Assembly (NCBI GenBank): GCA_016185545.1
Contig: JACPNJ010000006.1
Span: 1-61,014, forward strand
DNA length: 61,014 nt
Direction: 5' to 3'
Source: Candidatus Yanofskybacteria bacterium
Lineage (GTDB): Bacteria; Patescibacteriota; Minisyncoccia; 2-02-FULL-40-12; IGHO2-01-FULL-4-A
The notes under the pieces are model-generated. The model ran no database searches. It worked only from the letters and a program-made list of their open reading frames with translations, and was not told where the DNA came from. Below are positions 3,220 through 60,637 of the stretch, piece after piece (positions within the stretch are counted from its first letter, which is position 1; every line of letters starts with the position of its first letter). The translations under genes were made by a program, and so were the position numbers.

Positions 3220-3705
3220 TTACGCCCTTGATTCAAGAACAGTAACGCGATGTTCAAGCTTGTTAATTTTTCTTGTAGCCCCGGGCAAAAGTTCTTCCTT
3301 TACTTCTTTCATATCTGTCTTTAGCACGGTCATATCCTCTTTCATTACAGTCATATCCTCTTTCATTACAGTCATATCCTCTTTCATTACGGTCATATCT
3401 TCTTTCATCACAGTCATATCCTCTTTCAACTCCGCAACCGTTTCCATAAGCACTTCTGTTTTAATTTCTAGTTTGTCTAGGCGTTGATCTACATGCCCCA
3501 GATGTTTATTTATGTTTACGAGATTGCGGTTTGTATCAATATACTGCTCGGCCACCACCTTAACTTCGTTATCAAATTTCTCATATAAAACTCCCATGAA
3601 AGTTTTCATCTCATCCTTAAAACCTCGGATATTTTTACCGATTTTGGTTTCTAATTTATTTAAATCACCCTTGGTTGCAAACTGGTTTTCTGATTTATTG
3701 GTCAT
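3220..3705 (-). CDS. Hypothetical coiled-coil protein with 5-6 tandem MKEDMTV heptads
   Basis: 161-aa ORF with heptad-rich sequence. It contains the 21-bp tandem DNA repeat. Confidence 0.65.
   Translation of the reverse strand: MTNKSENQFATKGDLNKLETKIGKNIRGFKDEMKTFMGVLYEKFDNEVKVVAEQYIDTNRNLVNINKHLGHVDQRLDKLEIKTEVLMETVAELKEDMTVMKEDMTVMKEDMTVMKEDMTVMKEDMTVLKTDMKEVKEELLPGATRKINKLEHRVTVLESRA
3310..3435. repeat. 21-bp tandem repeat (about 6 copies, unit catatcctctttcattacagt)
   Basis: Near-identical 21-nt units are read directly at 3331, 3352, 3373, 3394 and 3415, with a degenerate unit at 3310. They are in frame in ORF 3220-3705. Confidence 0.9.
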
Positions 3706-5672: not shown

Positions 5673-6377
5673 ATGAGGCTTCCACACAAAACTCTTGAAA
5701 AAAAATTATTTGCGGACGGTTATCGCCATGTTATTGGCATAGATGAAGTTGGAATGGCTTGTCTGGCCGGACCTGTTTATGTTTGCGCGGTTTTGTTTAC
5801 TAAAGAATTTTTCGAAAAACCACATAAAAACCTGATCGGCTTGCGCGACTCCAAACAACTCTTACCGCATCAACGCGAAAAATTTTATGCCGAACTTATA
5901 AAAGAAGAGGGGATTAAGTACCAATTGGCTTCCTGCAATCCGAAAACAATAGACAAAATTAATATATATCAGGCGGCAAGGTTGACAATGAGAAGAGCCG
6001 TGAACAAACTAGGCGTCAGGTGCCAGGTGTCAGGTGTCAGAAAATCAAAACAAAAAAATTTTTACCTGAAACCTGTAACCTGCAACCTGAAACCTGCCGT
6101 TGTATTGGTTGATGGCAAGACTCCCATTAACGGTCTAAATCTGCCTCAAATGGCAATCGTGAAAGGCGACCGCAAGATTTTTGCTATTGCCTGCGCCTCT
6201 ATTATAGCCAAGGTTACCAGAGACCGCGTTATGTCACACCTTGCCAAGCGCTACCCCCAATACGGTCTTGAAAAACATAAGGGCTACCCAACCAAACTGC
6301 ACAAAGCCATGCTCATCCAACACGGTATTTGCGAAATACACAGAAAGTCTTTTGCACCAATAACTAAACTGCTATAA
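5673..6377 (+). CDS. rnhB: Ribonuclease HII, with a 29-codon in-frame heptamer-array insertion
   Basis: GIDEVGMACLAGPV (catalytic DE), VLVDGK, and IACASIIAKVTRD..YGLEKHKGYPT..H. Confidence 0.9.
   Translation: MRLPHKTLEKKLFADGYRHVIGIDEVGMACLAGPVYVCAVLFTKEFFEKPHKNLIGLRDSKQLLPHQREKFYAELIKEEGIKYQLASCNPKTIDKINIYQAARLTMRRAVNKLGVRCQVSGVRKSKQKNFYLKPVTCNLKPAVVLVDGKTPINGLNLPQMAIVKGDRKIFAIACASIIAKVTRDRVMSHLAKRYPQYGLEKHKGYPTKLHKAMLIQHGICEIHRKSFAPITKLL
6011..6097. repeat. Heptamer-periodic inverted array inside rnhB
   Basis: Sequence is aggcgtc aggtgcc aggtgtc aggtgtc ag, then an A-rich loop, then acctgaa acctgta acctgca acctgaa acctg. It is 87 nt (29 codons) with no stop. Confidence 0.9.
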
Positions 6378-11035: not shown

Positions 11036-14000
11036 ATGAATTTTATGGAAAATATTGAAAATAGCAAAATTTTTGCCGATTTAAACGATAAACAAATTGA
11101 AGCGGTGCGGGCCATAGAAGGCCCTGTTTTAATATTGGCCGGCGCCGGAAGCGGGAAATGTGTTTCTGGAGATACTTTGATATTTACAGGGGCGGGCATA
11201 ATACCTATTGAAGAAATCCCTCTTCACTTTGGTGTTAGTTCACAAAATGATTGCTCCGCGCCAATACTTTCGCATCACTTAAACGGAAGTTTCTCTATCA
11301 AGAATACCTCCCATTGGTTCAGGTTCCCAAAAACTAAAGTCATAAAAATTAGCACCAAAAGCGGTTATCAAATTACGGGCACATACGAGCATCCCTTACT
11401 TGTGTTAAATAGAGAAGGCGAATTGGAGTTTAAAAAGCTACGGGACTTAAAGAACGGCGAAGTGGTTGCTATTTCCAAAAATAATAATATCTGGGGAAAT
11501 TACAATCTCCATCCTGAAATTGCTTATCTGATGGGATTACTGGTGGGCGATGGTTACCTGGGTTTCAAAAGCGGTATTGGTTTTGCCCAGGTCAGTGAAA
11601 ATTTGATCAAGGCATTTAAAAATATTTTAAAAAAATTCTTCCAAATCCAAGTGGCTAAAATTAAATCGCGAGAGAGATACCCGGCTGGCAATAAAAGGCG
11701 CTCCACAACTCATTACGTATATAATATGGCCCTAAAAAGAGAGTTGGAAGGTCTTGGTCTAAAAATGGTAGGTTCGCATCATAAATCAATCCCACAAAGC
11801 GTTCTTACAGCCCCCAAGGATTCGGCCAAAGCATTCCTGCAAGGACTTTTTGACACCGATGGAAGCGTAAGCGGAGCTACCGTAGAATTGACTACCGCCT
11901 CCGAAACTCTGGCCAAACAAGTGCATGTCTGCCTACTAAACTTTGGTATTCGCGCTTCGTTAAGGCCGAAATTTGTAAAAAGTTATCGTAACAATACCTA
12001 CTGGCGCATAGCAATAATGGGAACTTCACTAAGGACTTTTGCCGCTGAAGTTGGATTTAGGTACCAGGATCACAAAATAGAAAAACTCCAAGCCATAGCA
12101 AACAAGGTTAGCAATAGCAATGTTGAGGTAATTCCATTCCAAAACCTAAACATAAAACACTTTAAAGATAGATACCTGCTTGGCACTGAAATTTATGATG
12201 GCAAGTATTATTACATATTTCCAGAAACACATAATAAAATCTACATAAGGGATTACCTGCGCCGGAGAAGAAATCCCTCCCCTTGGCAATTAGAAAGAAT
12301 ACTAAAAACAGCGGGTAACGGAGCAAGAGATCCGCGAGTAGAGTATATGTTTAACCTCACTCGAAATTTCTTTTTCGACCCCGTTGTTGAGGTGGCGAGA
12401 GAAAAAGAGAAAATAATTGTTTATGATTTTACCGTACCTAAAAATCATACTTTTGTCGGCAATGGTTTTATAAATCACAATACCCGCGCGCTGACACACC
12501 GCATCGCTTATATGATTGCCAATAACATTCCGCCACAAAATATTTTGGCTGTTACCTTCACGAACAAGGCTGCCGGCGAGATTAAAGAAAGAGTTGTAAA
12601 ATTACTGTCCGAAACTCAACCTAAAACCTATGACCTGAAACCTATAACCTCCCCCTCGCCGTGGCTGGGTACCTTCCACTCAATTTGCCTGCGAATTTTG
12701 CGCCATGATATTAAAACCCTCCCGCCTTATACCGAGAACTTTGTTGTCTACGATGAGGACGACCAGCTGGGTCTGATTAAAAACGTAATGCGTGAACTGG
12801 AGCTTGATATTAAGAAATTCAATCCCAAGAATGTGCTCGGCCGAATCTCCGCCCTCAAAAGCGAGCTTATTGGCTACGAAGAGTTTACAGAAAAAGCCCG
12901 AGAATACTTTGAAAAAATAGTCGCTCCTGTTTATACCGGCTATCAGATTACACTCCAACAAAATAATGCTCTGGATTTTGATGATTTAATTATGCTTTGT
13001 GTCCGGCTTTTTCAGAAGCATCCCGAAATACTGGAAAAATATCAAAATCTCTTCCGCTATATACTAATAGACGAATATCAAGACACGAATCATAGCCAGT
13101 ACGTCTGGGTTAATTTGCTGGCGCAAAAACATAGAAATCTTTTCGTAATAGGAGACGACTATCAAAGCATCTATTCATTCCGCCTAGCAAATATCCGCAA
13201 CATCTTGGACTTTGAGAAAGATTATCCCGAAGCAAAAATTATACTGCTTGAACAAAATTACCGTTCCACGGGCAACATCCTTGCCGCCGCCAACAATATA
13301 ATCATTAAAAACAAGAACCAAAAACATAAAAAGTTATGGACGGAGAACTCGGCAGGCGACGAAATAATATTAAAAGAAGCCGCCAATGAGCGGCGAGAGG
13401 GGGATTACGTGATTGAAACGGTACGAAACAACCTTAAACAAGGCCGCGGCCTGCAAGATTTCACAATTCTTTATCGCACCCACGCCCAATCAAGAGCTAT
13501 TGAGGAAGCAATGATTAAGCATGGCCTGCCGTACCGTATACTTGGCGGAGTTAAGTTTTACCAACGGCGAGAAATTAAAGACATTCTGGCCTACCTGCGA
13601 CTGGCCGTAAATCCTAACGATCTTATTAGCTGGAGCAGGATTTACAACGTACCCGGCCGCGGTATAGGTCAAACAACCTGGCAAAAAATAAAAGAAGCGA
13701 GAAAATTAAACATCGCTGAAACAATAAAAAACATCACCCTGGAATCAAGCATCGGCCAAAAACAAACCATCGCCCTTAAGTTGCTGGCTAAGTTTATCGA
13801 GGAATTATCACAAAAATCAGCAGAACTCTCGCCATCTCAACTAATTAAATATATTCTGCAAAAAACTAACTACGAGTTATACATCAATGACAAAACCACG
13901 GATGGCGAAGAACGCTGGGAAAATGTCAAAGAAATTTTGACCGCCACCCGCAAGTATGACAGCGAAACAGCACCGAATGGCCTGCAAAAATTCCTTGAAG

Positions 14001-14380
14001 AGGTCGCCTTAATTCAAGAAACGGATAAGATTGACAAAAGCGGCGGCGCAATCAATCTTATGACAATACATTCGGCCAAGGGCTTAGAGTTTCCGATTGT
14101 ATTTATCATTGGTATGGAAGATGGCATCTTCCCGCACTCGCGCGCCTTATTTGAGCCTGCGGAACTTGAGGAGGAAAGGAGACTTTGTTATGTCGGTATC
14201 ACTCGCGCCAAAGAACAGCTTCATCTGACCTATTGCCGAGAACGTATGTTTTATGGTTCTACTCAACTCAACCCGCCATCCAGATTTTTATTTGAAATCC
14301 CGGAACATTTGTTAAATTACTCGCCGCTTAGCCAAAATAAATATACGGAGGATTGGGACGATAAAATTGAGTACTATTAA
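11036..14380 (+). CDS. pcrA: ATP-dependent DNA helicase PcrA/UvrD, interrupted by an intein in the Walker A motif
   Basis: The exteins read AGAGSGK|T RALTHRIAYM, TFTNKAA, IDEYQDTN, DDYQSIYSFR, NYRS, IHSAKGLEF and YVGITRA. Confidence 0.9.
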   Translation: MNFMENIENSKIFADLNDKQIEAVRAIEGPVLILAGAGSGKCVSGDTLIFTGAGIIPIEEIPLHFGVSSQNDCSAPILSHHLNGSFSIKNTSHWFRFPKTKVIKISTKSGYQITGTYEHPLLVLNREGELEFKKLRDLKNGEVVAISKNNNIWGNYNLHPEIAYLMGLLVGDGYLGFKSGIGFAQVSENLIKAFKNILKKFFQIQVAKIKSRERYPAGNKRRSTTHYVYNMALKRELEGLGLKMVGSHHKSIPQSVLTAPKDSAKAFLQGLFDTDGSVSGATVELTTASETLAKQVHVCLLNFGIRASLRPKFVKSYRNNTYWRIAIMGTSLRTFAAEVGFRYQDHKIEKLQAIANKVSNSNVEVIPFQNLNIKHFKDRYLLGTEIYDGKYYYIFPETHNKIYIRDYLRRRRNPSPWQLERILKTAGNGARDPRVEYMFNLTRNFFFDPVVEVAREKEKIIVYDFTVPKNHTFVGNGFINHNTRALTHRIAYMIANNIPPQNILAVTFTNKAAGEIKERVVKLLSETQPKTYDLKPITSPSPWLGTFHSICLRILRHDIKTLPPYTENFVVYDEDDQLGLIKNVMRELELDIKKFNPKNVLGRISALKSELIGYEEFTEKAREYFEKIVAPVYTGYQITLQQNNALDFDDLIMLCVRLFQKHPEILEKYQNLFRYILIDEYQDTNHSQYVWVNLLAQKHRNLFVIGDDYQSIYSFRLANIRNILDFEKDYPEAKIILLEQNYRSTGNILAAANNIIIKNKNQKHKKLWTENSAGDEIILKEAANERREGDYVIETVRNNLKQGRGLQDFTILYRTHAQSRAIEEAMIKHGLPYRILGGVKFYQRREIKDILAYLRLAVNPNDLISWSRIYNVPGRGIGQTTWQKIKEARKLNIAETIKNITLESSIGQKQTIALKLLAKFIEELSQKSAELSPSQLIKYILQKTNYELYINDKTTDGEERWENVKEILTATRKYDSETAPNGLQKFLEEVALIQETDKIDKSGGAINLMTIHSAKGLEFPIVFIIGMEDGIFPHSRALFEPAELEEERRLCYVGITRAKEQLHLTYCRERMFYGSTQLNPPSRFLFEIPEHLLNYSPLSQNKYTEDWDDKIEYY
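11159..12481 (+). mobile_element. Intein (441 aa) with LAGLIDADG homing-endonuclease domain, inserted between K and T of GSGKT
   Basis: It starts CVSGDTLIF, has block B TGTYEHPLL, endonuclease motifs LMGLLVGDGYL and FLQGLFDTDGSV, and ends VGNGFINHN followed by +1 Thr. Confidence 0.85.
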
Positions 14381-15211
14381 ATGAGCTTAGCCACTCAAAT
14401 AAAAAATGAGTTAAATCAGCTTGGTATCAAACCCAAAAAATCGCTTGGGCAGAATTTTCTTATAAATGAGGGGATCTACAAAAAAATATTGGATATTGCG
14501 CAGATTAGACCGAGCGAAACAATTTTGGAAATAGGGGCTGGCCTGGGCACACTCACTGAATATTTAGCTCGCGCCGGAGGGAAAATTTTAGCCGTTGAAA
14601 AAGATAGGAATCTTGTGGCTTATCTTAAAGATCGTTTTCGGGATTATAATAATATTAGCACTGTAGAAGCTGATATTCTTAAAATCAAGCCTTCGGAATT
14701 AGGGCTGGAAGAAAAAAATTACAAGCTAGTCGGAAATATACCGTATTATCTGACATCGCATTTGATAAGAACGGTTTTTGAAAATTGGCCGTGGCCAAAA
14801 GATATTATCTTGATGGTACAAAAAGAGGTCGCGCAACGGATTGTTACTGAACCGCCGAATATGAATTTACTCGCGGTATCGATTCAATATTATGCCCGAA
14901 CGGAGATTGCTGGCATGGTTTCAAAGGGAAATTTTTGGCCTCAACCTAAAGTTGATTCTGCTATAATAAAGATAACTCCAAAAACCGAAATACCAGAGGC
15001 CGTAGAAACAGAAAGGTTTTTTAGAGTATTGAAGGCAGGATTTTCCGGCACAAGAAAACAACTTATAAATACTTTGTCGGGCGGATTAAAATTATCTAGG
15101 AAAACAGTAAGCTCAAAGCTCCTTTCGCTAGGTATCGCCACACAAAGACGCGCTGGAACATTGACTTTAGACGAATGGCAAAATATCGCTACTACGCTCT
15201 TGCCGCGTTAA
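14381..15211 (+). CDS. rsmA: 16S rRNA (adenine1518/1519-N6)-dimethyltransferase
   Basis: LGQNFL, EIGAGLGTLT, and GNIPYY. Confidence 0.9.
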   Translation: MSLATQIKNELNQLGIKPKKSLGQNFLINEGIYKKILDIAQIRPSETILEIGAGLGTLTEYLARAGGKILAVEKDRNLVAYLKDRFRDYNNISTVEADILKIKPSELGLEEKNYKLVGNIPYYLTSHLIRTVFENWPWPKDIILMVQKEVAQRIVTEPPNMNLLAVSIQYYARTEIAGMVSKGNFWPQPKVDSAIIKITPKTEIPEAVETERFFRVLKAGFSGTRKQLINTLSGGLKLSRKTVSSKLLSLGIATQRRAGTLTLDEWQNIATTLLPR

Positions 15212-16899
15212 GCGGCTTGCTCTTGTCCCTTGCCTATTCGGGTTGGAGTTTTGATTTGGGCTGGCTGGTCTGGATTGGATTTGTTCCACTTTTTTGGTCG
15301 TTGGCCCAAATCGTTTCCGAATACGAACATACTCGGAAACGATTTGGATTTTTGATAGGGTTCATCGCAGGACTTGTTTATTTTTTGATAATTTTCCGCT
15401 GGTTTTGGTCTATCTATCCGCTGGATACACTTGGCATTGAAAACCGTTCTATCTCCTTCGTCGCTGTTCTGCTTGTTTATCTGATTAGCTCTGCCGGAAT
15501 GGCAGTGTTTTGGGGACTTTTTGGAGCAGGTTTCAGGTTTCAGGTTTCAGGTTTCAGGTTTCAAAATGGATCAAGCACCTGGCACCTGGCACCTGGCACC
15601 TGGCACCCTTTGTTAATACTTTCCGCCCTATTCGTCCTGTTTGAATATCTCCGCTCCTGGGGTTTCGGGTTTTTGTGGGCCGGTTCCAATTCGCTTTTTG
15701 GCCCGCATTGGACATTGGGCAATCTGGCTTATGCTTTGGCCGATAATCCATTGGCGCTCAAACTCGCTTCGTTTGTTGGCGTCTATGGGGTTACTTTTGC
15801 GATTATTTTTATAAATTGCCTAATTTTTATAATTTTAAAAAAAAGGACTTATCTTGTAACCACAAGAATAGTCCTTGTGGTTTTGATACTTTTATTGGCT
15901 ACCTTTGGAACCAGGTTAATTAAATTTACGGCCACGCAGCAAGAAAAAAGTAAACAAGTTAACTTCGCCATTATACAAACCGCCCGGCCAACCAAAGTTT
16001 TGCCAAGTCCTCAAGAAACCTTGGCCGATCTCAAAGAACAGCTTGAATTACTTGACCGTGTCGCCAAAGAACATCCCGAAAGCCAGCTTATCGTTTTCCC
16101 CGAAACAAGCGACCTATTTAAAAATATCGCCCTGTTTTTAACCCCAGTGCAAGCCCAGGAATATTTTAGCAATCTTTTTGAAGATCCGAAATTAATAATT
16201 GCCGGCGGTAGAGTTATTGATTCCAATAGCAGTGCCTACTCACGTGTTTTCGATCTTAATACACAAAACGGCATTATCAACTATTATGATAAGCGTCTTC
16301 TAACTCCAGGCGGTGAATTTTTGCCTTACCCGGTAAAATTAATCGCTTGGATATTTTCAAAAACCACGGCCAATCAATTTGACAGCTTGCGCGAATTAAA
16401 TGTTGGCGTTAAAGATGTCTCAACTGTAAACTTCCGCGACCAATTTAAGGTAGCACCGATGATTTGTTCTGAATTGCTATCACCGAGTTTAGTCAAACAA
16501 ACTTCCCAAAGTTCAGATGTAATCGTCAGTATGGCAAGTTATGGAATTTTTCACGGAAATCCTGTTATAGCAAAGCAGATGCTTGCCACTACACGCTTCA
16601 GAGCAATAGAGAACACCAAACCAGCCGTTACCGCCGCTAATTTGGGACGCTCTTATGCAATAGACAGTCGAGGAAAAGTTGCTTATTTAGCCGCAAACTC
16701 CGATCCGCAGATATTAACAGGTTCTATTGTGCTAGGTTCCGGTAAATCGTGGTATAATAGAGTAGGCGATTTGCCAATAATTTTGGTATCTTTGCTATTG
16801 ATGGTCCTAGGGTTCAGGTTACAGGTGTCAGGTTACAGGGGAAGAATAAAATCTTGGTTATGGAGGAACCAAGAAATTAAAAATGGTAAATTCCTATAA
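15175..16899 (+). CDS. lnt: Apolipoprotein N-acyltransferase with heptamer-array segments
   Basis: Polytopic N-terminal half, then a CN-hydrolase domain (AIIQT.., VFPETS, APMICSEL). Confidence 0.8.
   Translation: MAKYRYYALAALSGLLLSLAYSGWSFDLGWLVWIGFVPLFWSLAQIVSEYEHTRKRFGFLIGFIAGLVYFLIIFRWFWSIYPLDTLGIENRSISFVAVLLVYLISSAGMAVFWGLFGAGFRFQVSGFRFQNGSSTWHLAPGTWHPLLILSALFVLFEYLRSWGFGFLWAGSNSLFGPHWTLGNLAYALADNPLALKLASFVGVYGVTFAIIFINCLIFIILKKRTYLVTTRIVLVVLILLLATFGTRLIKFTATQQEKSKQVNFAIIQTARPTKVLPSPQETLADLKEQLELLDRVAKEHPESQLIVFPETSDLFKNIALFLTPVQAQEYFSNLFEDPKLIIAGGRVIDSNSSAYSRVFDLNTQNGIINYYDKRLLTPGGEFLPYPVKLIAWIFSKTTANQFDSLRELNVGVKDVSTVNFRDQFKVAPMICSELLSPSLVKQTSQSSDVIVSMASYGIFHGNPVIAKQMLATTRFRAIENTKPAVTAANLGRSYAIDSRGKVAYLAANSDPQILTGSIVLGSGKSWYNRVGDLPIILVSLLLMVLGFRLQVSGYRGRIKSWLWRNQEIKNGKFL
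15528..15607. repeat. Heptamer-periodic inverted array inside lnt
   Basis: (aggtttc)x4-5, loop aaaatggatcaag, then (cacctgg)x3-4. It is translated as FRFQVSGFRFQ..STWHLAPGTWHP. Confidence 0.9.
16809..16840. repeat. Heptamer array, left arm of the cassette enclosing four-helix-bundle gene 1
   Basis: Sequence agggttc aggttac aggtgtc aggttac aggg, located in the last codons of lnt. Confidence 0.85.
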
Positions 16900-17239
16900 G
16901 GATTTGACTGTTTGGCAAAGGTCTCTCGAGTTAGTCAAAGAAATTTATAAAACAACTAGATTTCTACCAAAAGATGAAATTTATGGTTTAACGAATCAGA
17001 TGAGAAGGGCAGCAATATCGATACCTTCTAACATAGCCGAGGGACATCAAAGAAAAAATCTAAAAGAATATCTGCAATTCTTGAGAATATCTTATGGCTC
17101 GGCTGCAGAGCTAGAAACACAGCTTATTATTTCCAAAGAAATATATCCACGCATAGATTTTTTGACAGCGGAGTCGCTTCTTAAGGAAGTTCATAAAATG
17201 TTAAATACTCTGATCCAGAAACTTGAATTAAAATTTTAA
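16883..17239 (+). CDS. Four-helix-bundle protein (23S rRNA intervening-sequence protein family)
   Basis: Family signature Y.DL.VWQ....L...IY......P..E.YGL..Q.RRAA.SI..NIAEG.....K.....F..I..GS..E..T. Confidence 0.85.
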   Translation: MVNSYKDLTVWQRSLELVKEIYKTTRFLPKDEIYGLTNQMRRAAISIPSNIAEGHQRKNLKEYLQFLRISYGSAAELETQLIISKEIYPRIDFLTAESLLKEVHKMLNTLIQKLELKF

Positions 17240-17270
17240 CCTGAAACCTGATCCCTGAAACCTGTAACCT
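17239..17270. repeat. Heptamer array, right arm (inverse units) of cassette 1
   Basis: Sequence acctgaa acctgat ccctgaa acctgta acct, starting in the stop codon of the four-helix-bundle gene. Confidence 0.85.
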
Positions 17271-17302
17271 TCTGCTAGCGGGAGGCTAGCGGCATACAAA
17301 AC

Positions 17303-21677: not shown

Positions 21678-22256
21678 ATGCCGCTAACTCATCAAAAATA
21701 TCTTCAATATAGCCCATTTTTTGTAGACGCTACGGAGATGTCTGATTTGGATTGGGAAAGATTAAATACGAAAATAGACAAAATACCACAAACTTTAGCT
21801 GACTTTTTGGTTGATATTAAGGTTTCCGAGTTCATAGACGCCTTAGCCCAAAAATATATCCAACTCTCGGTGCAGGGACCGGATATGGCTAGGTTGATTA
21901 GGGATGTGGTGATCAGGGATATTTTTATCGGCGACATACCAAAGGAAATTTCAGATCGGCTGGGAGTTGACCAAACCCTCGCCCGCGAGATTGCAAATTT
22001 AATCATCTCCCAGCTTTTTACGCCGATTATTGAAGATATAAAGAAAGTACAGAACGAAAGGTATCCGGGTAGATTGCCCGCCCAATCACAGGTTTCAGGT
22101 GTCAGGGTTCAGGGTTCGGGGCAAAGCGGGCAAGATCCCAAACCAGTAGCGCCACCCTCCTACGCCAAGGCTTCGGAGGGCACAGCAAAGCATTATCAGG
22201 GCGAAGAGTTACCAGAATCAGGCGGTAATATTATTGACTTGCGAAGCAAGTCATAG
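21678..22256 (+). CDS. Hypothetical protein with heptamer-array and GC-hairpin segments near its C-terminus
   Basis: 192-aa ORF. Its C-terminal third is low complexity (QVSGVRVQGSG.., PPSYAKASEG) and is encoded by repeats. Confidence 0.5.
   Translation: MPLTHQKYLQYSPFFVDATEMSDLDWERLNTKIDKIPQTLADFLVDIKVSEFIDALAQKYIQLSVQGPDMARLIRDVVIRDIFIGDIPKEISDRLGVDQTLAREIANLIISQLFTPIIEDIKKVQNERYPGRLPAQSQVSGVRVQGSGQSGQDPKPVAPPSYAKASEGTAKHYQGEELPESGGNIIDLRSKS
22090..22121. repeat. Heptamer array (single arm) inside ORF 21678-22256
   Basis: Sequence aggtttc aggtgtc agggttc agggttc gggg. Confidence 0.8.
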
Positions 22257-22292
22257 GTTATAGGTTATAGCTGATAGCTGATAGGTGATAGC
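22255..22292. repeat. Heptamer array, left arm of the cassette enclosing four-helix-bundle gene 2 (AGGTTAT/AGCTGAT flavour)
   Basis: Sequence aggttat aggttat agctgat agctgat aggtgat agc. It begins within the TAG stop of the upstream ORF. Confidence 0.85.
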
Positions 22293-22339
22293 TTTAAAAA
22301 TGAGTTCTAGAAATAAGGAGGCTAGGACGCAAATAAAAA

Positions 22340-22705
22340 GTGGATAAAATTCATTCGTACAGAGATTTAGTGGTATGGCAAAGGTCCATTGAGCTAGTTA
22401 TAGAAATATACACGCTAACTGATAGGTTTCCGAAAGAAGAAATTTACGGACTAATTTCGCAATTAAGGAGAGCTGCCGTTTCAATCCCTTCTAATATCGC
22501 CGAAGGCAGGTATCGTGGGACAAGAAAAGATTTTAGGCAATTTCTTCTTAATGCTTACGGCTCTGGCGCTGAAGTTGAAACACAATTGGTTATTGCAAAT
22601 AAATTGCCGAAAACAAAAAATTTAAATTATGTCAGAGCAAATAAAATTCTAGATGAAGTAATGCTAATGTTAAATTCACTAATCAAAAAATTGGAAACTT
22701 CTTAA
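22340..22705 (+). CDS. Four-helix-bundle protein (23S rRNA intervening-sequence protein family), second copy (GTG start)
   Basis: YRDLVVWQRSIEL..IY..FPKEEIYGLISQLRRAAVSIPSNIAEG..FL..AYGSGAEVETQL. By eye it is roughly half identical to copy 1. Confidence 0.85.
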   Translation: MDKIHSYRDLVVWQRSIELVIEIYTLTDRFPKEEIYGLISQLRRAAVSIPSNIAEGRYRGTRKDFRQFLLNAYGSGAEVETQLVIANKLPKTKNLNYVRANKILDEVMLMLNSLIKKLETS

Positions 22706-22736
22706 CTATAACCTATGACCTATAAGCTATCACCTG
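22706..22736. repeat. Heptamer array, right arm of cassette 2
   Basis: Sequence ctataac ctatgac ctataag ctatcac ctg. It starts 1 nt after the stop and ends 4 nt before the next ATG. Confidence 0.85.
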
Positions 22737-22740
22737 CACC

Positions 22741-23046
22741 ATGAGATTCCAAGTCCCCCAATTCATAGAAACGGAAACCAAAATCGTCGGGCCATTCACG
22801 TTCAAGCAATTTTTGTTTCTGGCCGTTGGGGCGGTAATAATTTTTATCCTGCAATATGTAATCACCAGTTTTACTTTTTTAATAATTGTGGCTCTGCCGA
22901 TTGCTGCCTTATCCATTGCGCTTGCGTTTTACCGGATAGATGGCATACCCTTGCCGCAATACTTATTGATGGCATTATCATATGCGACGGGGGCGAAAAG
23001 ATACCAATTCACTAAAGAAAATAAGCAAAATTATTTGCAAAAATAG
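22741..23046 (+). CDS. PrgI-family (VirB3-like) small membrane protein
   Basis: N-terminus MRFQVPQFIETETKIVGPFTFKQFLFL followed by two transmembrane segments. It lies just upstream of VirB4-like genes. Confidence 0.7.
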   Translation: MRFQVPQFIETETKIVGPFTFKQFLFLAVGAVIIFILQYVITSFTFLIIVALPIAALSIALAFYRIDGIPLPQYLLMALSYATGAKRYQFTKENKQNYLQK

Positions 23047-23114
23047 GTTTCAGGTTACAGGTTTCAGGTTACAGAAAATTAAACCTGACACCTGACACCT
23101 GACACCTGACACCT
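23045..23114. repeat. Heptamer-periodic inverted array (stop-to-start)
   Basis: Sequence aggtttc aggttac aggtttc aggttac ag, loop aaaattaa, then (acctgac)x4 acct. It overlaps the TAG stop at 23044-23046 and ends at the TTG start at 23114. Confidence 0.9.
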
Positions 23115-23755
23115 TGCCCACACCGCCCAAAAACCAGTCCACCAAAGATTTCGTAGAAATCGCGGACATCCGCGAGAGTGTTGCGGTCTTAAAAGATGGG
23201 TCTTTGCGTTCTGTTATTGAAGTTGGTTCAATGAATTTTGAGCTTAAGTCAGCCGATGAACAAATGGCAATAATAAGCGCTTTCCAGAATTTCCTGAATT
23301 CCATTGATTTTCCGCTTCAAATCGCCGTTAATTCGCGTAAATTAGAAATCGGACCATATATGAAGTCGCTTAATGAACTGACCCAGAGCATTTCCAATGA
23401 ACTTATGAAAATCCAGGCCATTGAATACACGCGTTTCATCAAAGGACTAACGGAACTTGCCAATATAATGTCAAAAAAGTTTTATATTGTCGTTCCGCTG
23501 TATATTGTGGAAACGATCGGCAAGGGAGAACAGGGAACTGGAATTTTAGGCGCTTTCAGAAGCGTGGTTAGCCCTTCCAAATTCACTAAAACCCTCACTG
23601 ATCAAGAATTTGAAAATTATAAAACACAACTTAGTCAAAAAAACCAGTTTGTCATGGACAGCATCAGCGGATTAGGCATTGAAACGCGGATATTGGGAAA
23701 AGAGGAGCTAATGAATCTTTATTATTCTTATTACAATCCGGGACATCAATTATAA
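23114..23755 (+). CDS. VirB4/TraE-like protein, N-terminal domain fragment (TTG start)
   Basis: DFVEIADIRESVAVLKDGSLRSVIEVGSMNFELKSADEQMAIISAFQNFLNS resembles the N-terminal region of Gram-positive VirB4-type ATPases. It is in the same reading frame as 23894-25618. Confidence 0.6.
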   Translation: MPTPPKNQSTKDFVEIADIRESVAVLKDGSLRSVIEVGSMNFELKSADEQMAIISAFQNFLNSIDFPLQIAVNSRKLEIGPYMKSLNELTQSISNELMKIQAIEYTRFIKGLTELANIMSKKFYIVVPLYIVETIGKGEQGTGILGAFRSVVSPSKFTKTLTDQEFENYKTQLSQKNQFVMDSISGLGIETRILGKEELMNLYYSYYNPGHQL

Positions 23756-23760
23756 AAAGA

Positions 23761-23830
23761 AGGTGTCAGGTGCCAGGTTTCAGGTTACAGAAAATCACAC
23801 CTGACACCTGACACCTGACACCTGACACCT
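23761..23830. repeat. Heptamer-periodic inverted array between the two VirB4 parts
   Basis: Sequence aggtgtc aggtgcc aggtttc aggttac ag, loop aaaatcac, then (acctgac)x4 acct. Confidence 0.9.
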
Positions 23831-23893
23831 AAAATTTCATTATTCGCTAAAAAACCACAACCAATCGCTTCGCCCACAGAACCGCCTGTAAAA

Positions 23894-25618
23894 ATGTTGG
23901 ACGATATCTTGGCTCCTTCGGCGATTGATATTTCTTCCAACTATCTGCAAATAGGCGATACTTACGCCCGCACTTTTTTCTTAGCAACTTATCCGAGATA
24001 TCTAAATACCAACTGGTTTTCTCCGATTGTTAATATGGATCGGCCTTTTGACGTGTCTATTTTTGCGCATCCGGAAAATACTGCCCAAATGCTCAAGCAG
24101 CTACGCGATCGGCTTGGCCGGCTTCAGGCTCAGGAAATGGAGGAACAAGCGGCCGGTAAAGTAAGAGATCCGGTGTTGGAAACGGCTATCGGCGACATTG
24201 AGGCGCTTAGGGATAAACTACAGCAAGGAACAGAAAGATTTTTTAGATTGGGAGTTTATATAACGATATACGGCGGTTCGCTAAAAGAACTTGATGATAC
24301 GGAAAATAAAATCAAGTCAATTCTTGACGGTCAGCTGGTTTATTCAAAACTAGCAACTTTCAGAATGAAAGAAGGATTTTTCTCAACCCTGCCGCTTGCC
24401 GACGACCAGCTTCAGGTCCATAATTCATTGAATACCGAACCGATTTCCTCGCTTTTTCCTTTCGTGTCTTATGACCTGACCACAGAGAAGGGAATACTTT
24501 ACGGAATAAATACTCACAATAATTCTCTGGTTTTATTTGACAGGTTTAGTATGGAAAATGCGAATATGGTGATTTTCGGAAAGAGCGGCGGCGGTAAATC
24601 ATATGCCGTTAAATTGGAAATTCTCAGAAGTTTGATGTTTGGCACGCAGGTTTTTGTGATTGACCCTGAAAACGAATATAAATTCCTATCTGACACTGTA
24701 GGCGGCACTTCCATTAAAATATCCATCACCTCACCGCACCATATCAATCCGTTTGATCTGCCCAAGCCGTTACCCGATGAAAGTCCGGCTGACGTTTTAC
24801 GTTCTCATATTATTAATCTAATGGGTCTTTTTAAGCTCATGCTGGGAACGCTTACGGCGGAAGAAGAGGCGATTTTGGACGAAACCATAAATCAAACCTA
24901 TGCCATTAAGGACATAACGCCCCAAACGGCCGATTTGAAAAACGCCGTGCCACCGTTGATGTCGGATTTTCAAAATGTTTTAGAGGGCATGGCCGGCACG
25001 GAATCTTTGGTCATCAGGATTAAAAAGTATACTGAAGGTACATTTGCCGGTTTTTTGAATAATCCGACCAACGTTGAGTTAAATAATCAGCTGATAGTTT
25101 TCGGCATTCGCGACATGGAAGAAGAACTGCGCCCGATTGCCATGTATTTGGTGCTCAATTTTATTTGGACGCAAGTCAGAACAGAGTTGAAAAAACGTAT
25201 TTTAGCCGTGGATGAGGCGTGGGTATTGATGAAATACGAATCCGGAGCGGCATTTTTGTTCAATATAGCCAAGCGTGCACGCAAATACTATTTGGGTTTA
25301 ACAACAATTTCCCAAGATATTCCGGATTTCATGGCTTCGCCGTACGGCAAACCGATTGTTACCAATTCATCCCTGCAGTTGCTATTAAAACAATCGCCGG
25401 CATCAATCGACTTGGTTAAACAAACATTCAACCTGACAGATGCGGAAAAATTTTATCTTCTGGAATCGCGTGTGGGTCACGGTTTGTTTTTCGCCGGCAT
25501 CAATCATGTGGCCTTGCGGGTGATAGCATCATACGCTGAAGATCAGATTATTACCTCTGACCCAAGACAGATATTGGAAATAGAGGAAGCTAAAAAAGAA
25601 CTAGCAAAGCAAAGTTAG
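23894..25618 (+). CDS. VirB4-like type IV secretion ATPase, C-terminal (NTPase) part
   Basis: Walker A FGKSGGGKSY and Walker B ILAVDEAW, followed by TTISQD. The upstream region (NTNWFSPI.., FDVSIF) is typical of VirB4 middle domains. Confidence 0.8.
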   Translation: MLDDILAPSAIDISSNYLQIGDTYARTFFLATYPRYLNTNWFSPIVNMDRPFDVSIFAHPENTAQMLKQLRDRLGRLQAQEMEEQAAGKVRDPVLETAIGDIEALRDKLQQGTERFFRLGVYITIYGGSLKELDDTENKIKSILDGQLVYSKLATFRMKEGFFSTLPLADDQLQVHNSLNTEPISSLFPFVSYDLTTEKGILYGINTHNNSLVLFDRFSMENANMVIFGKSGGGKSYAVKLEILRSLMFGTQVFVIDPENEYKFLSDTVGGTSIKISITSPHHINPFDLPKPLPDESPADVLRSHIINLMGLFKLMLGTLTAEEEAILDETINQTYAIKDITPQTADLKNAVPPLMSDFQNVLEGMAGTESLVIRIKKYTEGTFAGFLNNPTNVELNNQLIVFGIRDMEEELRPIAMYLVLNFIWTQVRTELKKRILAVDEAWVLMKYESGAAFLFNIAKRARKYYLGLTTISQDIPDFMASPYGKPIVTNSSLQLLLKQSPASIDLVKQTFNLTDAEKFYLLESRVGHGLFFAGINHVALRVIASYAEDQIITSDPRQILEIEEAKKELAKQS

Positions 25619-25695
25619 GTTTCGGGTGTCAGGTTTCAGGGACCAGGTTAAAGAAAAATTTTCCCTGTAACCTGTAACCTGTAACCTGTAACCTG
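25617..25695. repeat. Heptamer-periodic inverted array (stop-to-start)
   Basis: Sequence aggtttc gggtgtc aggtttc agggacc aggttaa, loop agaaaaattttc, then (cctgtaa)x4 cctg. It overlaps the TAG at 25616-25618 and abuts the ATG at 25696. Confidence 0.9.
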
Positions 25696-26361
25696 ATGCC
25701 GGATGATCAATACTACTACGACCTTGCTTATGCCCGAGGACAGCAACAAGAACAGAGAGAAATCCAAGATACTGCCAATCGTGTTATAAAACCGCCATCG
25801 GGTACGTTATATTTTTTTCTTTACTGTCTTGCTGGAATTGGCGATATATTGGATTGGCTCACTCTCACCGGAATTGGAGCTATTGTTTCCTTTATAGTTG
25901 ACCTTTTTATCGGCATAATACTATTTTTCGCCGGACGCGCGGCAAGAGACAGGATAAAAACCATGAATGAATTCCAGGATGGCCTTCATGGACATATACA
26001 AAATATCGAAAGGAAAATTGTTGCTTACAGAAATGCTTATGCTAAAATTTTAAGAGTGTCCCGAAAAGTTAAGATCCTAAGAAAACCAGTCAGGAAACTT
26101 GCATTAAGATTCGCAAGATTGCGAAAAAGTGTTGCCAGAAGTCCCTTGGGAAGAACGATTGCCGCAATTATCGCTGATTTAATCCCTTTTTTAGATCTTA
26201 TGCCTTGGCGAACTATTAATATCTATATGATGAAAAAACAAGAAATGCAGGCTTTCCAAGACGCTCAAAATATGTTACCTGAATATATGGAGGCCAAAGC
26301 AGATGAAATAGAAGCGGCAAACGATTTGCAAGAAGCAGAGATGACAGAACAAGCCGCATAA
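25696..26361 (+). CDS. Hypothetical membrane protein (two transmembrane segments, basic or amphipathic tail)
   Basis: 221-aa ORF in the cluster. No recognisable family. Confidence 0.55.
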   Translation: MPDDQYYYDLAYARGQQQEQREIQDTANRVIKPPSGTLYFFLYCLAGIGDILDWLTLTGIGAIVSFIVDLFIGIILFFAGRAARDRIKTMNEFQDGLHGHIQNIERKIVAYRNAYAKILRVSRKVKILRKPVRKLALRFARLRKSVARSPLGRTIAAIIADLIPFLDLMPWRTINIYMMKKQEMQAFQDAQNMLPEYMEAKADEIEAANDLQEAEMTEQAA

Positions 26362-35986: not shown

Positions 35987-36691
35987 TTACCGGTATTTCC
36001 GGTTTATATAAAGCTGTTCAAATATGGAAAAAGCCGTAGCGGTTACCCAATAAATGGTCAACCCGGCAGGTAAATTCCAAGCGATAATTATAACCATAAT
36101 CGGGAAAAAATACAACATCTGCTTACTCATTTGGAAAGTGGGAGAAGGAATCTCGTTTTTGGAAGCCGGGGCTTGAAAAGAAGCTGCTTTTTTTGATTGA
36201 AACCATTGTAAAATTCCGGCTAAAACGGCTAAAATGGCATTCTTTTGGGTAAGGTTAATGAACCCAAATGCAATTTGTTTTATAGCCACTGGATGACTTA
36301 CAAACGAATATAAAGCCGTAAGACTTTCGGGTTTTAATCCAGAATTTAATGCGCTATAAAGCGCAATTAGAACCGGAAGTTGTATAAGGAGCGGCAAACA
36401 GCCGCCAAACGGATTTACATTATGCTCCTTATAAAGGGCCATGGTTGCCTGACCCAGTGCTTGCTTGTCGTTTTTGTGTTTTTCCTGAAGCTCTTTGATT
36501 TTTGGCTGAAGCTTGCTTAATTCTTTTTGCGATACCAGCGCTTTAATTGATAAGGGTGTAAATACTAATCTAACTACGATTGTCAGTAAAATAATCGCTA
36601 CGCCAAAATCATTTCCAGGAACAATGTTGTAAATAAAAACCAAGAGGTTGAATAGGGGACGGAAGAGAAGTTCGTTGTATAAAAAACCCAA
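35987..36691 (-). CDS. yidC: YidC/Oxa1-family membrane insertase (TTG start)
   Basis: PL..KA..SQ.E...LQPKIKELQEK.K.D, NPFGGCLP.LIQ.P, and the conserved operon position. Confidence 0.85.
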   Translation of the reverse strand: MGFLYNELLFRPLFNLLVFIYNIVPGNDFGVAIILLTIVVRLVFTPLSIKALVSQKELSKLQPKIKELQEKHKNDKQALGQATMALYKEHNVNPFGGCLPLLIQLPVLIALYSALNSGLKPESLTALYSFVSHPVAIKQIAFGFINLTQKNAILAVLAGILQWFQSKKAASFQAPASKNEIPSPTFQMSKQMLYFFPIMVIIIAWNLPAGLTIYWVTATAFSIFEQLYINRKYR

Positions 36692-36693
36692 AC

Positions 36694-36766
36694 TAGGTTA
36701 TAGGTTATAGGTTATAGGTTATAGGTTTAAAATTTCTAACACCTATAACCTATCAGCTATCACCTG
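36694..36766. repeat. Heptamer-periodic inverted array (yidD stop to yidC start)
   Basis: (taggtta)x4-5, loop taaaatttctaa, then cacctat aacctat cagctat cacctg. The plus-strand right arm contains the yidD TGA, and the other end lies 2 nt from the yidC start. Confidence 0.9.
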
Positions 36767-37322: not shown

Positions 37323-37328
37323 GCATTC

Positions 37329-37388
37329 AGGTTATAGGTTACAGGTTATAGGTTACAGGTTTTTTCTGACACCTGACGCCTGACACCT
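37329..37388. repeat. Heptamer-periodic inverted array (rpmH stop to rnpA start)
   Basis: Sequence aggttat aggttac aggttat aggttac aggt, loop tttttct, then gacacct gacgcct gacacct. Confidence 0.9.
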
Positions 37389-37524
37389 AAACAGTAAGCT
37401 GTTGTCTTCCTTTCCGGCGACGGCGAGCTAAAACTTTTCTGCCATTTTTGGACCTAGCCCGTTTTAAAAATCCATGAGTCTTGGCTCTTTTCTTCTTTTT
37501 TGGACGATATAATGTAATTTTCAT
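37387..37524 (-). CDS. rpmH: 50S ribosomal protein L34 (45 aa; below the ORF-track length cut-off)
   Basis: Hand translation gives [45 protein letters not shown]. Confidence 0.9.
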
Positions 37525-44876: not shown

Positions 44877-44887
44877 AGCGAATTTTA

Positions 44888-44962
44888 AGGTTTCAGTTTT
44901 CAGGGATCAGGTTTCAGGTACTAGAGAAGAACCTGTAACCTGTAACCTGTAACCTGTAACCT
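44888..44962. repeat. Heptamer-periodic inverted array (yebC stop to ruvC start)
   Basis: Sequence aggtttc agttttc agggatc aggtttc aggtac, loop tagagaaga, then (acctgta)x4 acct. Confidence 0.9.
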
Positions 44963-45482
44963 ACTTCAAATTGGTGTACACATTCTCCACATCCTCATTA
45001 TTATCCAATTCTTCAAGAAGTTTATCTAATTTTTGTTGGATTTCCGGAGTAACTTCAATGGGCGTGTTTGGTTCCCAGTTTTTATTAAACATCCAGTTAA
45101 GAGAATTCTCTGGAACCATTTTTGCTTCATGTTCGGCAAGGATATGTTTAATTTCATTGACGATACGATTTTTGTTGTCAGTAATTCCCTCTATTATGAC
45201 GGCGACACTGCCTGGTCCTATAGCTTGAATAATTACTTCGTCTAACGAAGTAGTATCTTTTTCCGATGCTCTTTTGATTGCTCTCTCAATGTTTTCTTTG
45301 GGCATGTTAAAAGTTCTGGCCTCTTCAATGATTGATTGCAATTTATAGTTAGCCGAAGGATCAGTGCCCTCGCGTGCCGCAATTGATATTTTCTTTGCCA
45401 GCTTGCTAAAAAGCTGACCCTTTTTCTGGTCACTGATACCCTTTTTATGTTTTATTTGAGACCACTTCGAATGCCCGCTCAT
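44961..45482 (-). CDS. yebC: YebC/PmpR-family DNA-binding regulator (short form)
   Basis: MSGHSKWSQIKHKKG..D.KKG..FSKL.K.I..AAREG..DP..N..L...IE.A...NMPK..IERAI. Confidence 0.85.
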   Translation of the reverse strand: MSGHSKWSQIKHKKGISDQKKGQLFSKLAKKISIAAREGTDPSANYKLQSIIEEARTFNMPKENIERAIKRASEKDTTSLDEVIIQAIGPGSVAVIIEGITDNKNRIVNEIKHILAEHEAKMVPENSLNWMFNKNWEPNTPIEVTPEIQQKLDKLLEELDNNEDVENVYTNLK

Positions 45483-59597: not shown

Positions 59598-60637
59598 ATG
59601 AAAACACAACACGCGAAATCTCCCTGTTGCCGAGGGAGCATAAATCGTTTCGGCAAGCGTCGCAGGCAATGTTCGATATGCAAACACACATGGCGCATTC
59701 GGCAAAAAAGCCGCGGTAGGAAACGGAAACGCGTTGATCGCCGGCTGGTTCATCGGATACTTGTCGAGCGCCGGACTTTTCAGCATCATTGCCGCAAAGG
59801 AGCGATCTCGCAAAGCGGTTTCAGCAAACGATTTTCAAAAGCCATTCGTTCCGATCCCAAACTCAAAACGCGCTTGCAGTTTCCGTCTGGCCCCTACGCG
59901 CTTCTTGGCGACGGTCTGTACTTCAAGTTCCAACGAATGGACTGGGTTATGTATATCATGGCGGTGAAGCCGGTTAAATCTCATCGAGCCTTCTTTCTTA
60001 ATCCCGTCTTGCTTCAAGGGAAAGAATGCTATGAGCGTTGGCGCGTGGCTTTGGGCACAATACCGCCAGAGAGACCAGGAAACACGTTAAAGCATTTGTT
60101 TCCGACGGTTTTCGAGGATCCAAGCTCATTGCCAGGGAACAGGGCTGGATTCACCAACGTTGTCATTTCCATCTCTTAATGGCGCTGATCAGGAGACACG
60201 GCAGGCGATCGTATCGCACCAAGGGCGCGGGTATTCGCGAAAGATTGTTGGGGGTTGTTCGGATATTACTTATCACCCCGGACAGTACCACTTTGAAAAG
60301 GCAGACGATTAAAGCCCGGCGATTAATCTCACATCCGCTCTGTCCACCCTGGATTCGCATCCAGACCGTTGAGTTTCTTCGCACCCTCAATGACTTCCGC
60401 GCCTATCTCATACATCCCGAGTTGAATCTGCCGACAACCAACAACTCAATTCCAGCGGAAAGATTATCAGGAAAGCAACAAGCATGGCGCGGACATCACA
60501 ATCGGTTTTACTTCGCGCGACGGCGTTTCTGCGACTCAAGAAATCTGTTGCCTGCAACGGCAAATTTTCAACCAAATTATGTCAATGAACCCAAAAGTTT
60601 CTTTGCCCAAAATACAGAATCGCCAACTGATTTTTAA
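59598..60637 (+). pseudogene. DDE-type transposase with N-terminal zinc ribbon, split by a frameshift
   Basis: Two overlapping ORFs in different frames (59598-60179 and 60038-60637). Motifs are CC..x..C..C, LLGDGLY, FVSDGFRG and HQRCHFH. The IS family was not determined. Confidence 0.5.

Follow-up and report, generated by a model that had tools for sequence, protein, structure and literature searches.

A four-helix-bundle gene between inverted heptad arrays in a Candidatus Yanofskybacteria genome: a probable intervening-sequence-type cassette with gene-less relatives

Contig JACPNJ010000006.1 of a Candidatus Yanofskybacteria bacterium (GenBank assembly GCA_016185545.1), analyzed here over a stretch of 61,014 nucleotides referred to as the window (61 kb, 41% G+C, and resembling Candidate Phyla Radiation (CPR)/Patescibacteria in character), carries a small gene of the family named for open reading frames (ORFs) in 23S rRNA intervening sequences (IVSs). 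Tandem heptamers precede this gene and their inverse follows it. The question raised by the locus is whether the heptamer arrays and the protein belong together and, if so, what kind of element they make up. The first-pass annotation of this DNA had suggested a single mobile or processing unit, and the view that arrays and protein family form one unit is upheld by a bracket of arrays that recurs across the family, by insertion as a block and by co-inheritance. Positions 16808-17270 hold a single copy (cassette 1) of a compact cassette that has no promoter of its own. From 5' to 3', it comprises a forward arm, a leader, a four-helix-bundle gene and an inverse arm, with about five heptads in each arm. 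Its arms and gene very probably form one functional and evolutionary unit. The overall explanation considered best, with a confidence only a little above even, is an IVS-type unit of arms and gene accompanied by dependent gene-less arrays.

The cassette, its orthologs and its protein family

The forward arm of cassette 1 reads TAGGGTT CAGGTTA CAGGTGT CAGGTTA CAGGG and the inverse arm TAACCTG AAACCTG ATCCCTG AAACCTG TAACCT (Table 1). The placement of the 118-aa gene between them, with the inverse arm beginning in the gene's own stop codon, is confirmed by the coordinates and by an inverted-repeat search, which finds 75-83% complementarity over 24-36 nt between arms 398-412 nt apart. The TAA stop (17237-17239) supplies the first three bases of the inverse arm. 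On the other side, the forward arm lies in the last codons of lnt, as had been stated: the lnt ORF (15175-16899) reads through the arm, which is translated as its last part, and ends in a stop (16897-16899) that overlaps the start of the cassette gene. No array is present between 16841 and 17236, that is, inside the cassette, and complete gene-less arrays have loops of only 8-23 nt; the two arms are therefore not parts of two independent arrays, a possibility that the annotation itself had listed for checking. The phased core pattern CAGGTNNCAGGTNNCAGGT, with at most two mismatches, has 54 matches in the window, against 0.04 expected from shuffles.

Within the leader, a Shine-Dalgarno sequence (GGAGGAA, 16862-16868, about 8 bases 5' of the ATG) lies in the loop of a small hairpin at 16847-16879 (TAAAATCTTGGTT / AACCAAGAAATTA), and similar sequence is kept at the related loci L085, L088 and L104. 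A weak -35/-10-like match at 16825-16852, spanning the forward arm and the inner border, was given no weight. The cassette is promoterless in layout and co-oriented with its host operon, and it is therefore expected to be read from the host operon transcript. In a minimum-free-energy RNA fold of 16800-17280, the arms are joined to each other (16803-16841 with 17238-17277, z = -4.1), which, together with the site between lnt and the next gene, bears out the earlier description of a stem, an ORF in the loop and a second stem half in an mRNA context. Pairing in such arrays is periodic, with the 5-nt core paired and the 2-nt spacers mostly unpaired; across 16 arrays, the mismatches at the two spacer positions comprise 12 G:U, 5 A:C and 68 others. 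The order of the arms is constant, the G-rich one invariably preceding the C-rich one (548 G-C vs 148 C-G pairs).

The history of the insertion can be read from orthologous lnt loci, a comparison that the annotation had proposed. Cassette 1 occupies the same junction in L085, L088 and L104, in the order rsmA, lnt, cassette and TSP3-repeat gene. L097 has the same synteny and an empty site, at which 12 nt separate the lnt stop from the next gene, without arm or cassette gene; no heptad array was found there in 4.3 kb. The identity of Lnt to that of the window is 57% for L097 and 58% for L104. From this bare junction it follows that the cassette arrived as one block, about 480 nt long, and replaced the last ~14 lnt codons by an arm-encoded tail. 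An alignment of the filled with the empty site shows no target-site duplication, but at 57% protein identity the flanks have diverged too far for its absence to be certain.

Once inserted, arms and gene have been strictly maintained. Among the window, L085 and L088, the cassette gene has a ratio of non-synonymous to synonymous divergence (dN/dS) of 0.03-0.09, with silent sites saturated (proportion of synonymous differences, pS, 0.60-0.74). The arms, on the other hand, differ at only 1-3 of 67 nt, unpaired positions included: the forward arm is identical in L085 and has one change in L088, and the inverse arm shows at most one difference from its orthologs. Since the arms are nearly invariant while silent sites are saturated, they are best regarded as functional sequence and not as a mere by-product of slippage. 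On this comparison, arms and gene have evidently been inherited together under strong purifying selection, the arms even more strictly than the silent sites, and the selection pattern indicates that the cassette gene is expressed and needed.

Assignment of the protein to the 23S rRNA IVS family is confirmed by a hidden Markov model (HMM) search, with scores of 120.1 bits for PF05635 (cut-off 33.8; E = 6e-35), 120.4 for TIGR02436 (cut-off 24) and 142.6 for NF008911 (cut-off 137); the protein of a second cassette in the window (cassette 2) also exceeds the curated HMM cut-offs of the PF05635/TIGR02436 family. The family motif GxxRxxxSxxxNxxE (PMC3936711) is present in the cassette 1 protein as YGLTNQMRRAAISIPSNIAEG, and S46, N50, E53 and G54 are invariant in an alignment of 15 sequences. 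The closest solved structure is that of XCC0516 from Xanthomonas campestris (2GSC, E = 5e-21), and 2RLD is homologous as well. Each of these structures contains five chains, and a pentameric assembly is further indicated by the title of Lin et al. By homology to 2GSC and 2RLD, the cassette 1 protein is predicted to be a pentameric four-helix bundle.

PF05635 proteins are homologous to Avd of diversity-generating retroelements (PMC10053308), likewise a pentameric four-helix bundle. The cassette 1 protein, however, falls far below the equivalog cut-off of the Avd model NF033474 (21.8 bits vs 80) and matches PF22296 only weakly. Membership in a diversity-generating retroelement was rejected on this ground and because no RVT domain is encoded among ten neighboring proteins and no template/variable repeat lies nearby. 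Apart from PF05635 and the weak bAvd match, the cassette protein has no domain match, Y1_Tnp included, and PADLOC returned no defence-system match.

The 80 best genomic homolog loci were surveyed, one genome per GTDB species. The sample comprises the relatives closest to the cassette 1 protein, with Avd proteins of the retroelement type left out, and covers CPR lineages, Bacteroidota, Clostridia, several proteobacterial classes, Planctomycetota, Verrucomicrobiota, Acidobacteriota and others. The score of a locus was that of the best inverted repeat joining the 150-nt flanks on the two sides of the gene. When the upstream flank of one locus was combined with the downstream flank of another, the resulting null distribution had a mean of 16 (95th percentile, 23; 99th percentile, 28). 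A score of at least 24 was reached by 77% of the 78 scorable loci, compared with 6% of 201 neighboring genes (Mann-Whitney p = 3e-27), and a score of at least 28 by 54% and 4%, respectively. Four of the 12 high-scoring controls are themselves more distant PF05635 paralogs. The first-pass annotation had staked its link on homologs elsewhere, and most of them are indeed flanked by inverted arrays. Viral-contig homologs from IMG/VR carry arms in 7-8 of 10 cases.

A common architecture of the bracket recurs in many phyla. The arm period is 7 in 64% of cases, 8 in 24% and 9 in 7%; the median arm has 4.35 copies and 31 nt, and arm-to-arm distances are about 350-470 nt. The end of the forward arm lies a median of 15 nt from the start codon, and for 36% of the genes the inverse arm begins at the stop codon or within it. 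Almost every genome has a repeat unit of its own (AGTGGTT, GGGAACA, TTAGTGG, AAGCCACG, AGTTGTTGA, TGAAGTT and others), while the two arms of one gene always match each other and paralogs within one genome (L014, L028, L061, L082) carry different units. At most loci the arms surround the gene and no other array is nearby. Of 76 cassettes, 54 point the same way as both neighbors and three against both, with about 46 nt to each neighbor. Forward units often hold a stop codon irrespective of frame, mostly TAG (27 of 40, vs 46% in shuffled units). A rule of exactly five units per arm was considered and rejected, as the mode is 4-5 and the range 3-19.

PF05635 genes on plasmids are overwhelmingly cyanobacterial. 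Among the four copies inspected, that of Nostoc punctiforme pNPUN02 (L102) has both arms, (CAGGAGT)5 / (ACTCCTG), and three keep the inverse arm only: L100 and L101 on plasmids of Nostoc PCC 7120, adjoining insertion sequence (IS) elements, and L103 in Calothrix. From these three it appears that the bracket can be lost.

A prediction made in advance concerned Xanthomonas, whose genomes each contain about 186 arrays of the heptamer GGGAATC, 70 of them convergent pairs, with no explained function, as described in a 2015 paper in which XCC0516 does not figure (PMC4692102). It was predicted that XCC0516, the structurally solved relative of the cassette protein, would be flanked by this heptamer, and this was then found. 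The gene lies between accB and accC, with the 5' flank GGGAATC GGGAGTG GAGAATC GGGAATC and the 3' flank CCCATTC CCCATTC TCGACTC CCTATTC, which extends up to the accC start. The accB-accC spacer holds a cassette also in Stenotrophomonas, Lysobacter and Rhodanobacter, and the cassette at this shared site is therefore old and vertically inherited. Its core is GGGAAT in Xanthomonas, Lysobacter and Stenotrophomonas (units GGGAATN), and GGGATT in both Rhodanobacter arms (GGGATTC).

Gene-less arrays and concerted core changes

Arrays are dense in the window, at about one per 5 kb (Table 1). The gene of cassette 2 is the only paralog of the cassette 1 gene found in the window by tblastn, and both PF05635 genes are bracketed by split arrays, as no other window gene is. 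Every other array is either a single arm or a complete hairpin whose loop measures 8-23 nt.

Table 1. Positions of cassette parts and heptad arrays in the window
Feature	Positions	Strand	Remarks
Forward arm, cassette 1	16808-16840	+	5 phased NAGGN-core units: TAGGG, CAGGT, CAGGT, CAGGT, CAGGG
Leader, cassette 1	16841-16882	+	42 nt; A-rich inner border GAAGAATAAAAT
118-aa four-helix-bundle gene, cassette 1	16883-17239	+	PF05635 / TIGR02436; motif YGLxxQMRRAAxSIPSNIAEG
Inverse arm, cassette 1	17237-17270	+	5 phased units: ACCTG, ACCTG, CCCTG, ACCTG, ACCTT
Forward arm, cassette 2	22247-22294	+	TAGGTTA / TAGCTGA units, six cores
121-aa PF05635 gene, cassette 2	22340-22705	+	56% identical to cassette 1 protein
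Inverse arm, cassette 2	22702-22735	+	CTATAAC-type units; begins in the gene's TAA stop
Gene-less hairpin array	6011-6098	.	Forward and inverse arms around a 23-nt A-rich loop; in frame in RNase HII gene
Gene-less hairpin array	15523-15610	.	In frame in lnt; (CAGGTTT)5, loop, (GCACCTG)4-5; orthologous in L085, L104
Gene-less hairpin array	23043-23119	.	Fills spacer between PrgI-like gene and next ORF; supplies TAG stop, overlaps TTG start
Gene-less hairpin array	23761-23835	.	Between two type IV secretion cluster ORFs
Gene-less hairpin array	25618-25700	.	Between VirB4-like gene and next ORF
Gene-less hairpin array	36691-36765	.	Cassette 2 type, TAGGTTA / TAGCTGA units
Gene-less hairpin array	37326-37390	.	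Mixed CAGGTTA and TAGGTTA units; adjoins RNase P protein gene
Gene-less hairpin array	44883-44965	.	Between ruvC and yebC-like gene
In-frame array or single arm	57637-57675		Class-V aminotransferase (NifS-like)
In-frame array or single arm	12618-12651		PcrA/UvrD
In-frame array or single arm	22086-22123		ORF 21678-22256

The eight gene-less hairpins share the CAGGT core of cassette 1, except for that at 36691-36765, which has the TAGGT/TAGCT core of cassette 2, so that each cassette type of the window has gene-less arrays of its own type. They fold at -21 to -43 kcal/mol, with z scores of -3.4 to -7.7. An AGAAAAT-type motif 3' of the forward arm is common to cassette 1 and the gene-less arrays, and several gene-less loops (AGAAAATC..., ...AAATTTTT) resemble the inner borders of cassette 1 (GAAGAATAAAATC ... 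AAAATTTT) fused to each other.

The cores of the arrays change together. The window, L085 and L088 have CAGGT as their core. In L104, CAGT/ACTG replaces CAGGT/ACCTG in every array, among them the arms of both cassettes and the in-frame rsmA and lnt arrays, which have orthologs in L085 and the window. In the lnt array, every unit has changed alike between the window and L085 (CAGGTTT to CAGGTGT, GCACCTG to GAACCTG). Gene-less arrays are also gained and lost: L085 and L104 have one in rsmA, which in the window is missing or decayed. Concerted change of cores cannot result from point mutations that arise independently under a pairing constraint, and implies either homogenization or rewriting of arrays, or a common reader of drifting specificity together with slippage that spreads the favored unit. 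Judged from the common genome-specific core, the loop-border motif and the joint core change, the gene-less arrays evidently belong to the cassette system. In L104 both cassette positions are filled, and the protein at position 2 is cassette-1-like, with 74% identity to protein 1 (56% in the window), which suggests replacement or conversion of a cassette.

Several arrays are closely fitted to the surrounding genes. Those at 23043-23119 and 25618-25700 fill the whole spacer between co-directional genes, the first unit forming the upstream stop (TAG/TAA) and the array also overlapping the downstream start; stop and start would therefore both lie at the base of one stem in the folded RNA. A split of the VirB4 gene by the array at 23761-23835 was considered and set aside, as every domain of the VirB4 type is encoded by the ORF downstream of the array. 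The array at 6011-6098 divides the Pfam match of RNase HII in two. In-frame arrays are read as peptide (e.g., FRFQVSGFRFQ...WHLAPGTWH), and their spacer bases avoid stop codons. Rfam, at the gathering threshold, gave no match at any array, its only matches in the window being a 16S fragment and two tRNAs. A consensus scan for intrinsic terminators found 12 in the window where 10.4 were expected, with no T-run after the arms, and a promoter consensus scan was not enriched.

Interpretation, related systems and rival explanations

ORF-bearing 23S rRNA IVSs were reportedly described in Leptospira by Ralph and McClelland in 1993. In Coxiella burnetii, the IVS has 2-4 tandem heptamers (GACAGAT) just upstream of its ORF, their number varying between strains, and RNase III cuts in vitro at the first heptamer (PMC4990558). 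The link to IVSs drawn by the first-pass annotation thereby holds for the protein family, as the same family (PF05635, 'S23p') is involved, the ORF likewise lies in the loop of a stem with complementary termini, and the Coxiella heptamers precede the ORF. The differences concern setting and state. Cassette 1 lies between lnt and the TSP3-repeat protein gene, not in 23S rRNA (helix 9, 25 or 45); both arms are tandem heptad arrays; the gene, unlike that of Coxiella, is under strong purifying selection; and the genome also holds many gene-less arrays. Lying outside rRNA, the cassette is no IVS in the strict sense; it is best read as the same kind of element as the ORF-bearing 23S rRNA IVS, set in an operon between protein genes.

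In its genomic logic, the cassette most resembles a different system, the repetitive extragenic palindromic (REP) doublets forming hairpins (REPINs) and their REP-associated tyrosine transposases (RAYTs), whereas in geometry it is most like an IVS. REPtrons, reported by Nunvar in 2010, Bertels and Rainey in 2011 and Ton-Hoang in 2012, are said to consist of a single-copy RAYT gene with inverted REP flanks, accompanied by many gene-less REP doublets. As in that system, a gene is flanked by inverted copies of a dispersed repeat (two cassettes and eight gene-less hairpins in 61 kb), gene-less inverted pairs far outnumber the gene, the locus is fixed and vertically inherited, and the repeat is genome-specific and co-evolving. 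The protein, however, is a 118-aa four-helix bundle instead of a Y1 HUH transposase, and the repeats are tandem units of 7-9 nt instead of a single palindrome of 20-25 nt. The gene-less arrays taken alone also recall the Rickettsia palindromic elements that Ogata et al. are said to have described in 2000, hairpin repeats translated in frame in housekeeping genes; those elements differ in being unique sequences of 100-150 bp that are not heptad arrays and have no associated gene.

A mechanism joining these observations can be proposed. The heptad, with its 5-nt core and 2-nt free spacer, would be the recognition unit for an oligomeric (pentameric) four-helix-bundle protein, and the cassette would be a master copy, encoding the reader along with two cognate arrays, on which the gene-less arrays would depend as REPINs do on a RAYT. 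In the operon transcript, the arms would pair as an imperfect duplex of ~30 bp, loop out the gene and bring the flanking cistrons together, and this duplex would be open to cutting by RNase III, by analogy with IVSs. That the protein reads the heptads is held at, or just short of, an even chance. As a precedent in mechanism only, TRAP reads 11 (G/U)AG repeats. The omega repressor/ParB of pSM19035 is reported to use contiguous heptads (PMC9499535). Both combine a short conserved core with a free spacer, in repeats that approximate the subunit number. RNase III-type processing of the arm duplex as a main function is put forward tentatively, as somewhat more doubtful than not. The two sides balance evenly on whether the cassette system is, or once was, mobile at the DNA level.

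On a wider and equally tentative reading, PF05635 pentamers and genome-specific heptad arrays would make up an unrecognized, nearly pan-bacterial two-component repeat system, in which the protein reads its own heptad and helps to maintain or spread it, with the cassette as the master copy. Short tandemly repeated repetitive (STRR) heptamer repeats are found in cyanobacteria. TAACTGA heptamer repeats occur in Beggiatoaceae and cyanobacteria (PMC4679880). Like the arrays of the window, these unexplained families and GGGAATC occur in tandem runs of 2-6 or more copies, mostly intergenic, often convergent and genome-specific, and the Xanthomonas heptamer is identical to the arm sequence of the resident PF05635 gene. 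The terms 'four helix', 'S23' and 'intervening sequence' occur nowhere in the text of PMC4692102 or PMC4679880. Published reports place PF05635 genes in rRNA insertions of CPR bacteria and within cas operons, for example between cmr3 and cmr2; full-text literature searches found no paper on a general link between PF05635 genes and flanking inverted heptamer arrays, although one may still have been published.

The finding joins three puzzles that are decades old: the ORF-bearing rRNA IVSs, in question since 1993, the role of the S23p protein, and the existence of heptamer-rich genomes. The family has thousands of close homologs and two crystal structures, and no known function. If the two-component system is real, the rRNA IVSs, the Xanthomonas GGGAATC repeats, similar heptamer excesses and the in-frame hairpins of housekeeping genes would all be its manifestations. 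XCC0516, which has a solved structure and is flanked by the organism's own repeat, published as functionless, offers a test case in a tractable bacterium. For annotation, cassettes sit in operons (e.g., accB-accC, cas operons, a type IV secretion cluster), where they extend or replace the ends of neighboring genes, and housekeeping enzymes acquire extra peptide segments from the gene-less relatives.

A number of observations weigh against the favored account. To our knowledge, the PF05635 family has no known nucleic-acid specificity or catalytic motif, and binding of the arrays by the protein is accordingly presented as a proposal. About a quarter of the homologs have no detectable arm pair, and some keep one arm only. 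The units per arm peak at 4-5 with the wide range given above, which makes the match to a pentamer only suggestive. Selection for a sense-strand RNA stem should leave more G:U than A:C among the arm mismatches, and over 70 loci it has not done so (67 vs 88). This does not support RNA-specific pairing and, together with the systematically non-complementary spacers, tends to argue against a stem defined by pairing alone. Housekeeping genes (RNase HII, Lnt, the NifS-like enzyme and PcrA) tolerate hairpin arrays in frame, which speaks against the efficient cutting of all arrays in mRNA. Entire orders keep the cassette at one locus, so that active mobility is at best rare. Finally, the Coxiella IVS ORF is apparently not expressed and is decaying (PMC4990558).

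Of the competing explanations, an unlikely one sees the element purely as an IVS-type device of RNA processing. The arms would form a stem whose cutting by RNase III excises and/or stabilizes the cassette mRNA and sets the flanking cistrons apart; the protein would have an unrelated role, the heptads would not be read, and the gene-less arrays would be processing or stability hairpins. This would agree with the IVSs of Coxiella and Leptospira, in which a gene of this family sits within a stem cut by RNase III at its first heptamer, with the predicted pairing of the arms and the folding energies of the gene-less arrays (-21 to -43 kcal/mol), with the co-orientation of cassettes and operons and the filling of intergenic spacers, and with an arm length of ~31 nt that fits an RNase III substrate. 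Pairing alone, however, leaves the tandem heptads in every phylum and the joint core switch per genome unexplained. The arms are kept base by base, unpaired positions too, and the spacers are systematically unpaired, although pairing there would strengthen the stem; the absence of a wobble excess and the arrays in frame in essential genes also count against it.

Movement as DNA, in the manner of REPINs and RAYTs, is improbable to a similar degree. The arrays would be the ends or binding sites of an element moved or copied as DNA, possibly as single-stranded hairpins; the protein would recruit host enzymes, and the gene-less arrays would be internally deleted, non-autonomous copies. Here the repeat that flanks the gene in inverted copies is also dispersed without it, the gene-less loops resemble the two inner borders of cassette 1 joined together (AGAAAAT.. 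/ ..AAATTTT), gene-less arrays are present or absent between sister species (rsmA), arrays are inserted in frame in coding genes, an empty cassette site exists (L097), and cassettes occur on viral contigs and plasmids. The lack of an RNA-type wobble signal and the constant order of G-rich and then C-rich arms, like that of oriented transposon ends, fit as well. Against these stand a protein without recombinase, nuclease or HUH domain, filled and empty sites without a target-site duplication visible in their diverged flanks, cassettes fixed at one locus over very long periods, and the absence of near-identical copies that would hint at recent movement, the two window cassettes being only 56% identical.

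It is very improbable that the arrays are a feature of the host genome whose loops are favored by a four-helix-bundle gene that is mobile on its own. Many complete short-loop arrays would be available as targets, and the gene does sit exactly at the loop position; yet at the L097 junction array and gene are missing together, with no array in 4.3 kb, most surveyed loci have arms around the gene and no other array nearby, paralogs within one genome carry different units, and the arms are kept across species more strictly than the silent sites of the gene. Coincidence, by which small genes would land by chance between the short tandem repeats common in intergenic DNA, could appeal to the density of arrays in the window but has a negligible probability, being already refuted by the controls (54 phased matches vs 0.04 expected; 77% of genes bracketed vs 6%, p = 3e-27), by the split arrays around both PF05635 genes of the window and no other gene, and by the XCC0516 prediction, made beforehand and confirmed.

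Other features of the window

The gene content of the window includes lnt, rsmA, an intein-bearing PcrA, a PrgI/VirB4 secretion cluster and a 16S rRNA gene with a LAGLIDADG insertion. Two overlapping arginine-rich ORFs of 193 and 199 aa lie at the window end (59598-60637) and have no Pfam match; a transposase identity was considered for them and rejected, as nothing supports it. At 3309-3428, a 21-nt tandem repeat (GTCATATCCTCTTTCATTACA) is present in 4.8 copies with 93% matches and is unrelated to the heptad arrays. The PcrA/UvrD helicase (11036-14380) contains an intein with a LAGLIDADG_3 domain and has 1114 aa, compared with 659 aa for the L085 ortholog, which is free of the intein. The 16S rRNA fragment (model positions 875-1387) spans 1294 nt at 98-1391 and includes an insertion of ~780 nt that encodes a LAGLIDADG_2 endonuclease (ORF 395-988), as is typical for CPR rRNA genes.

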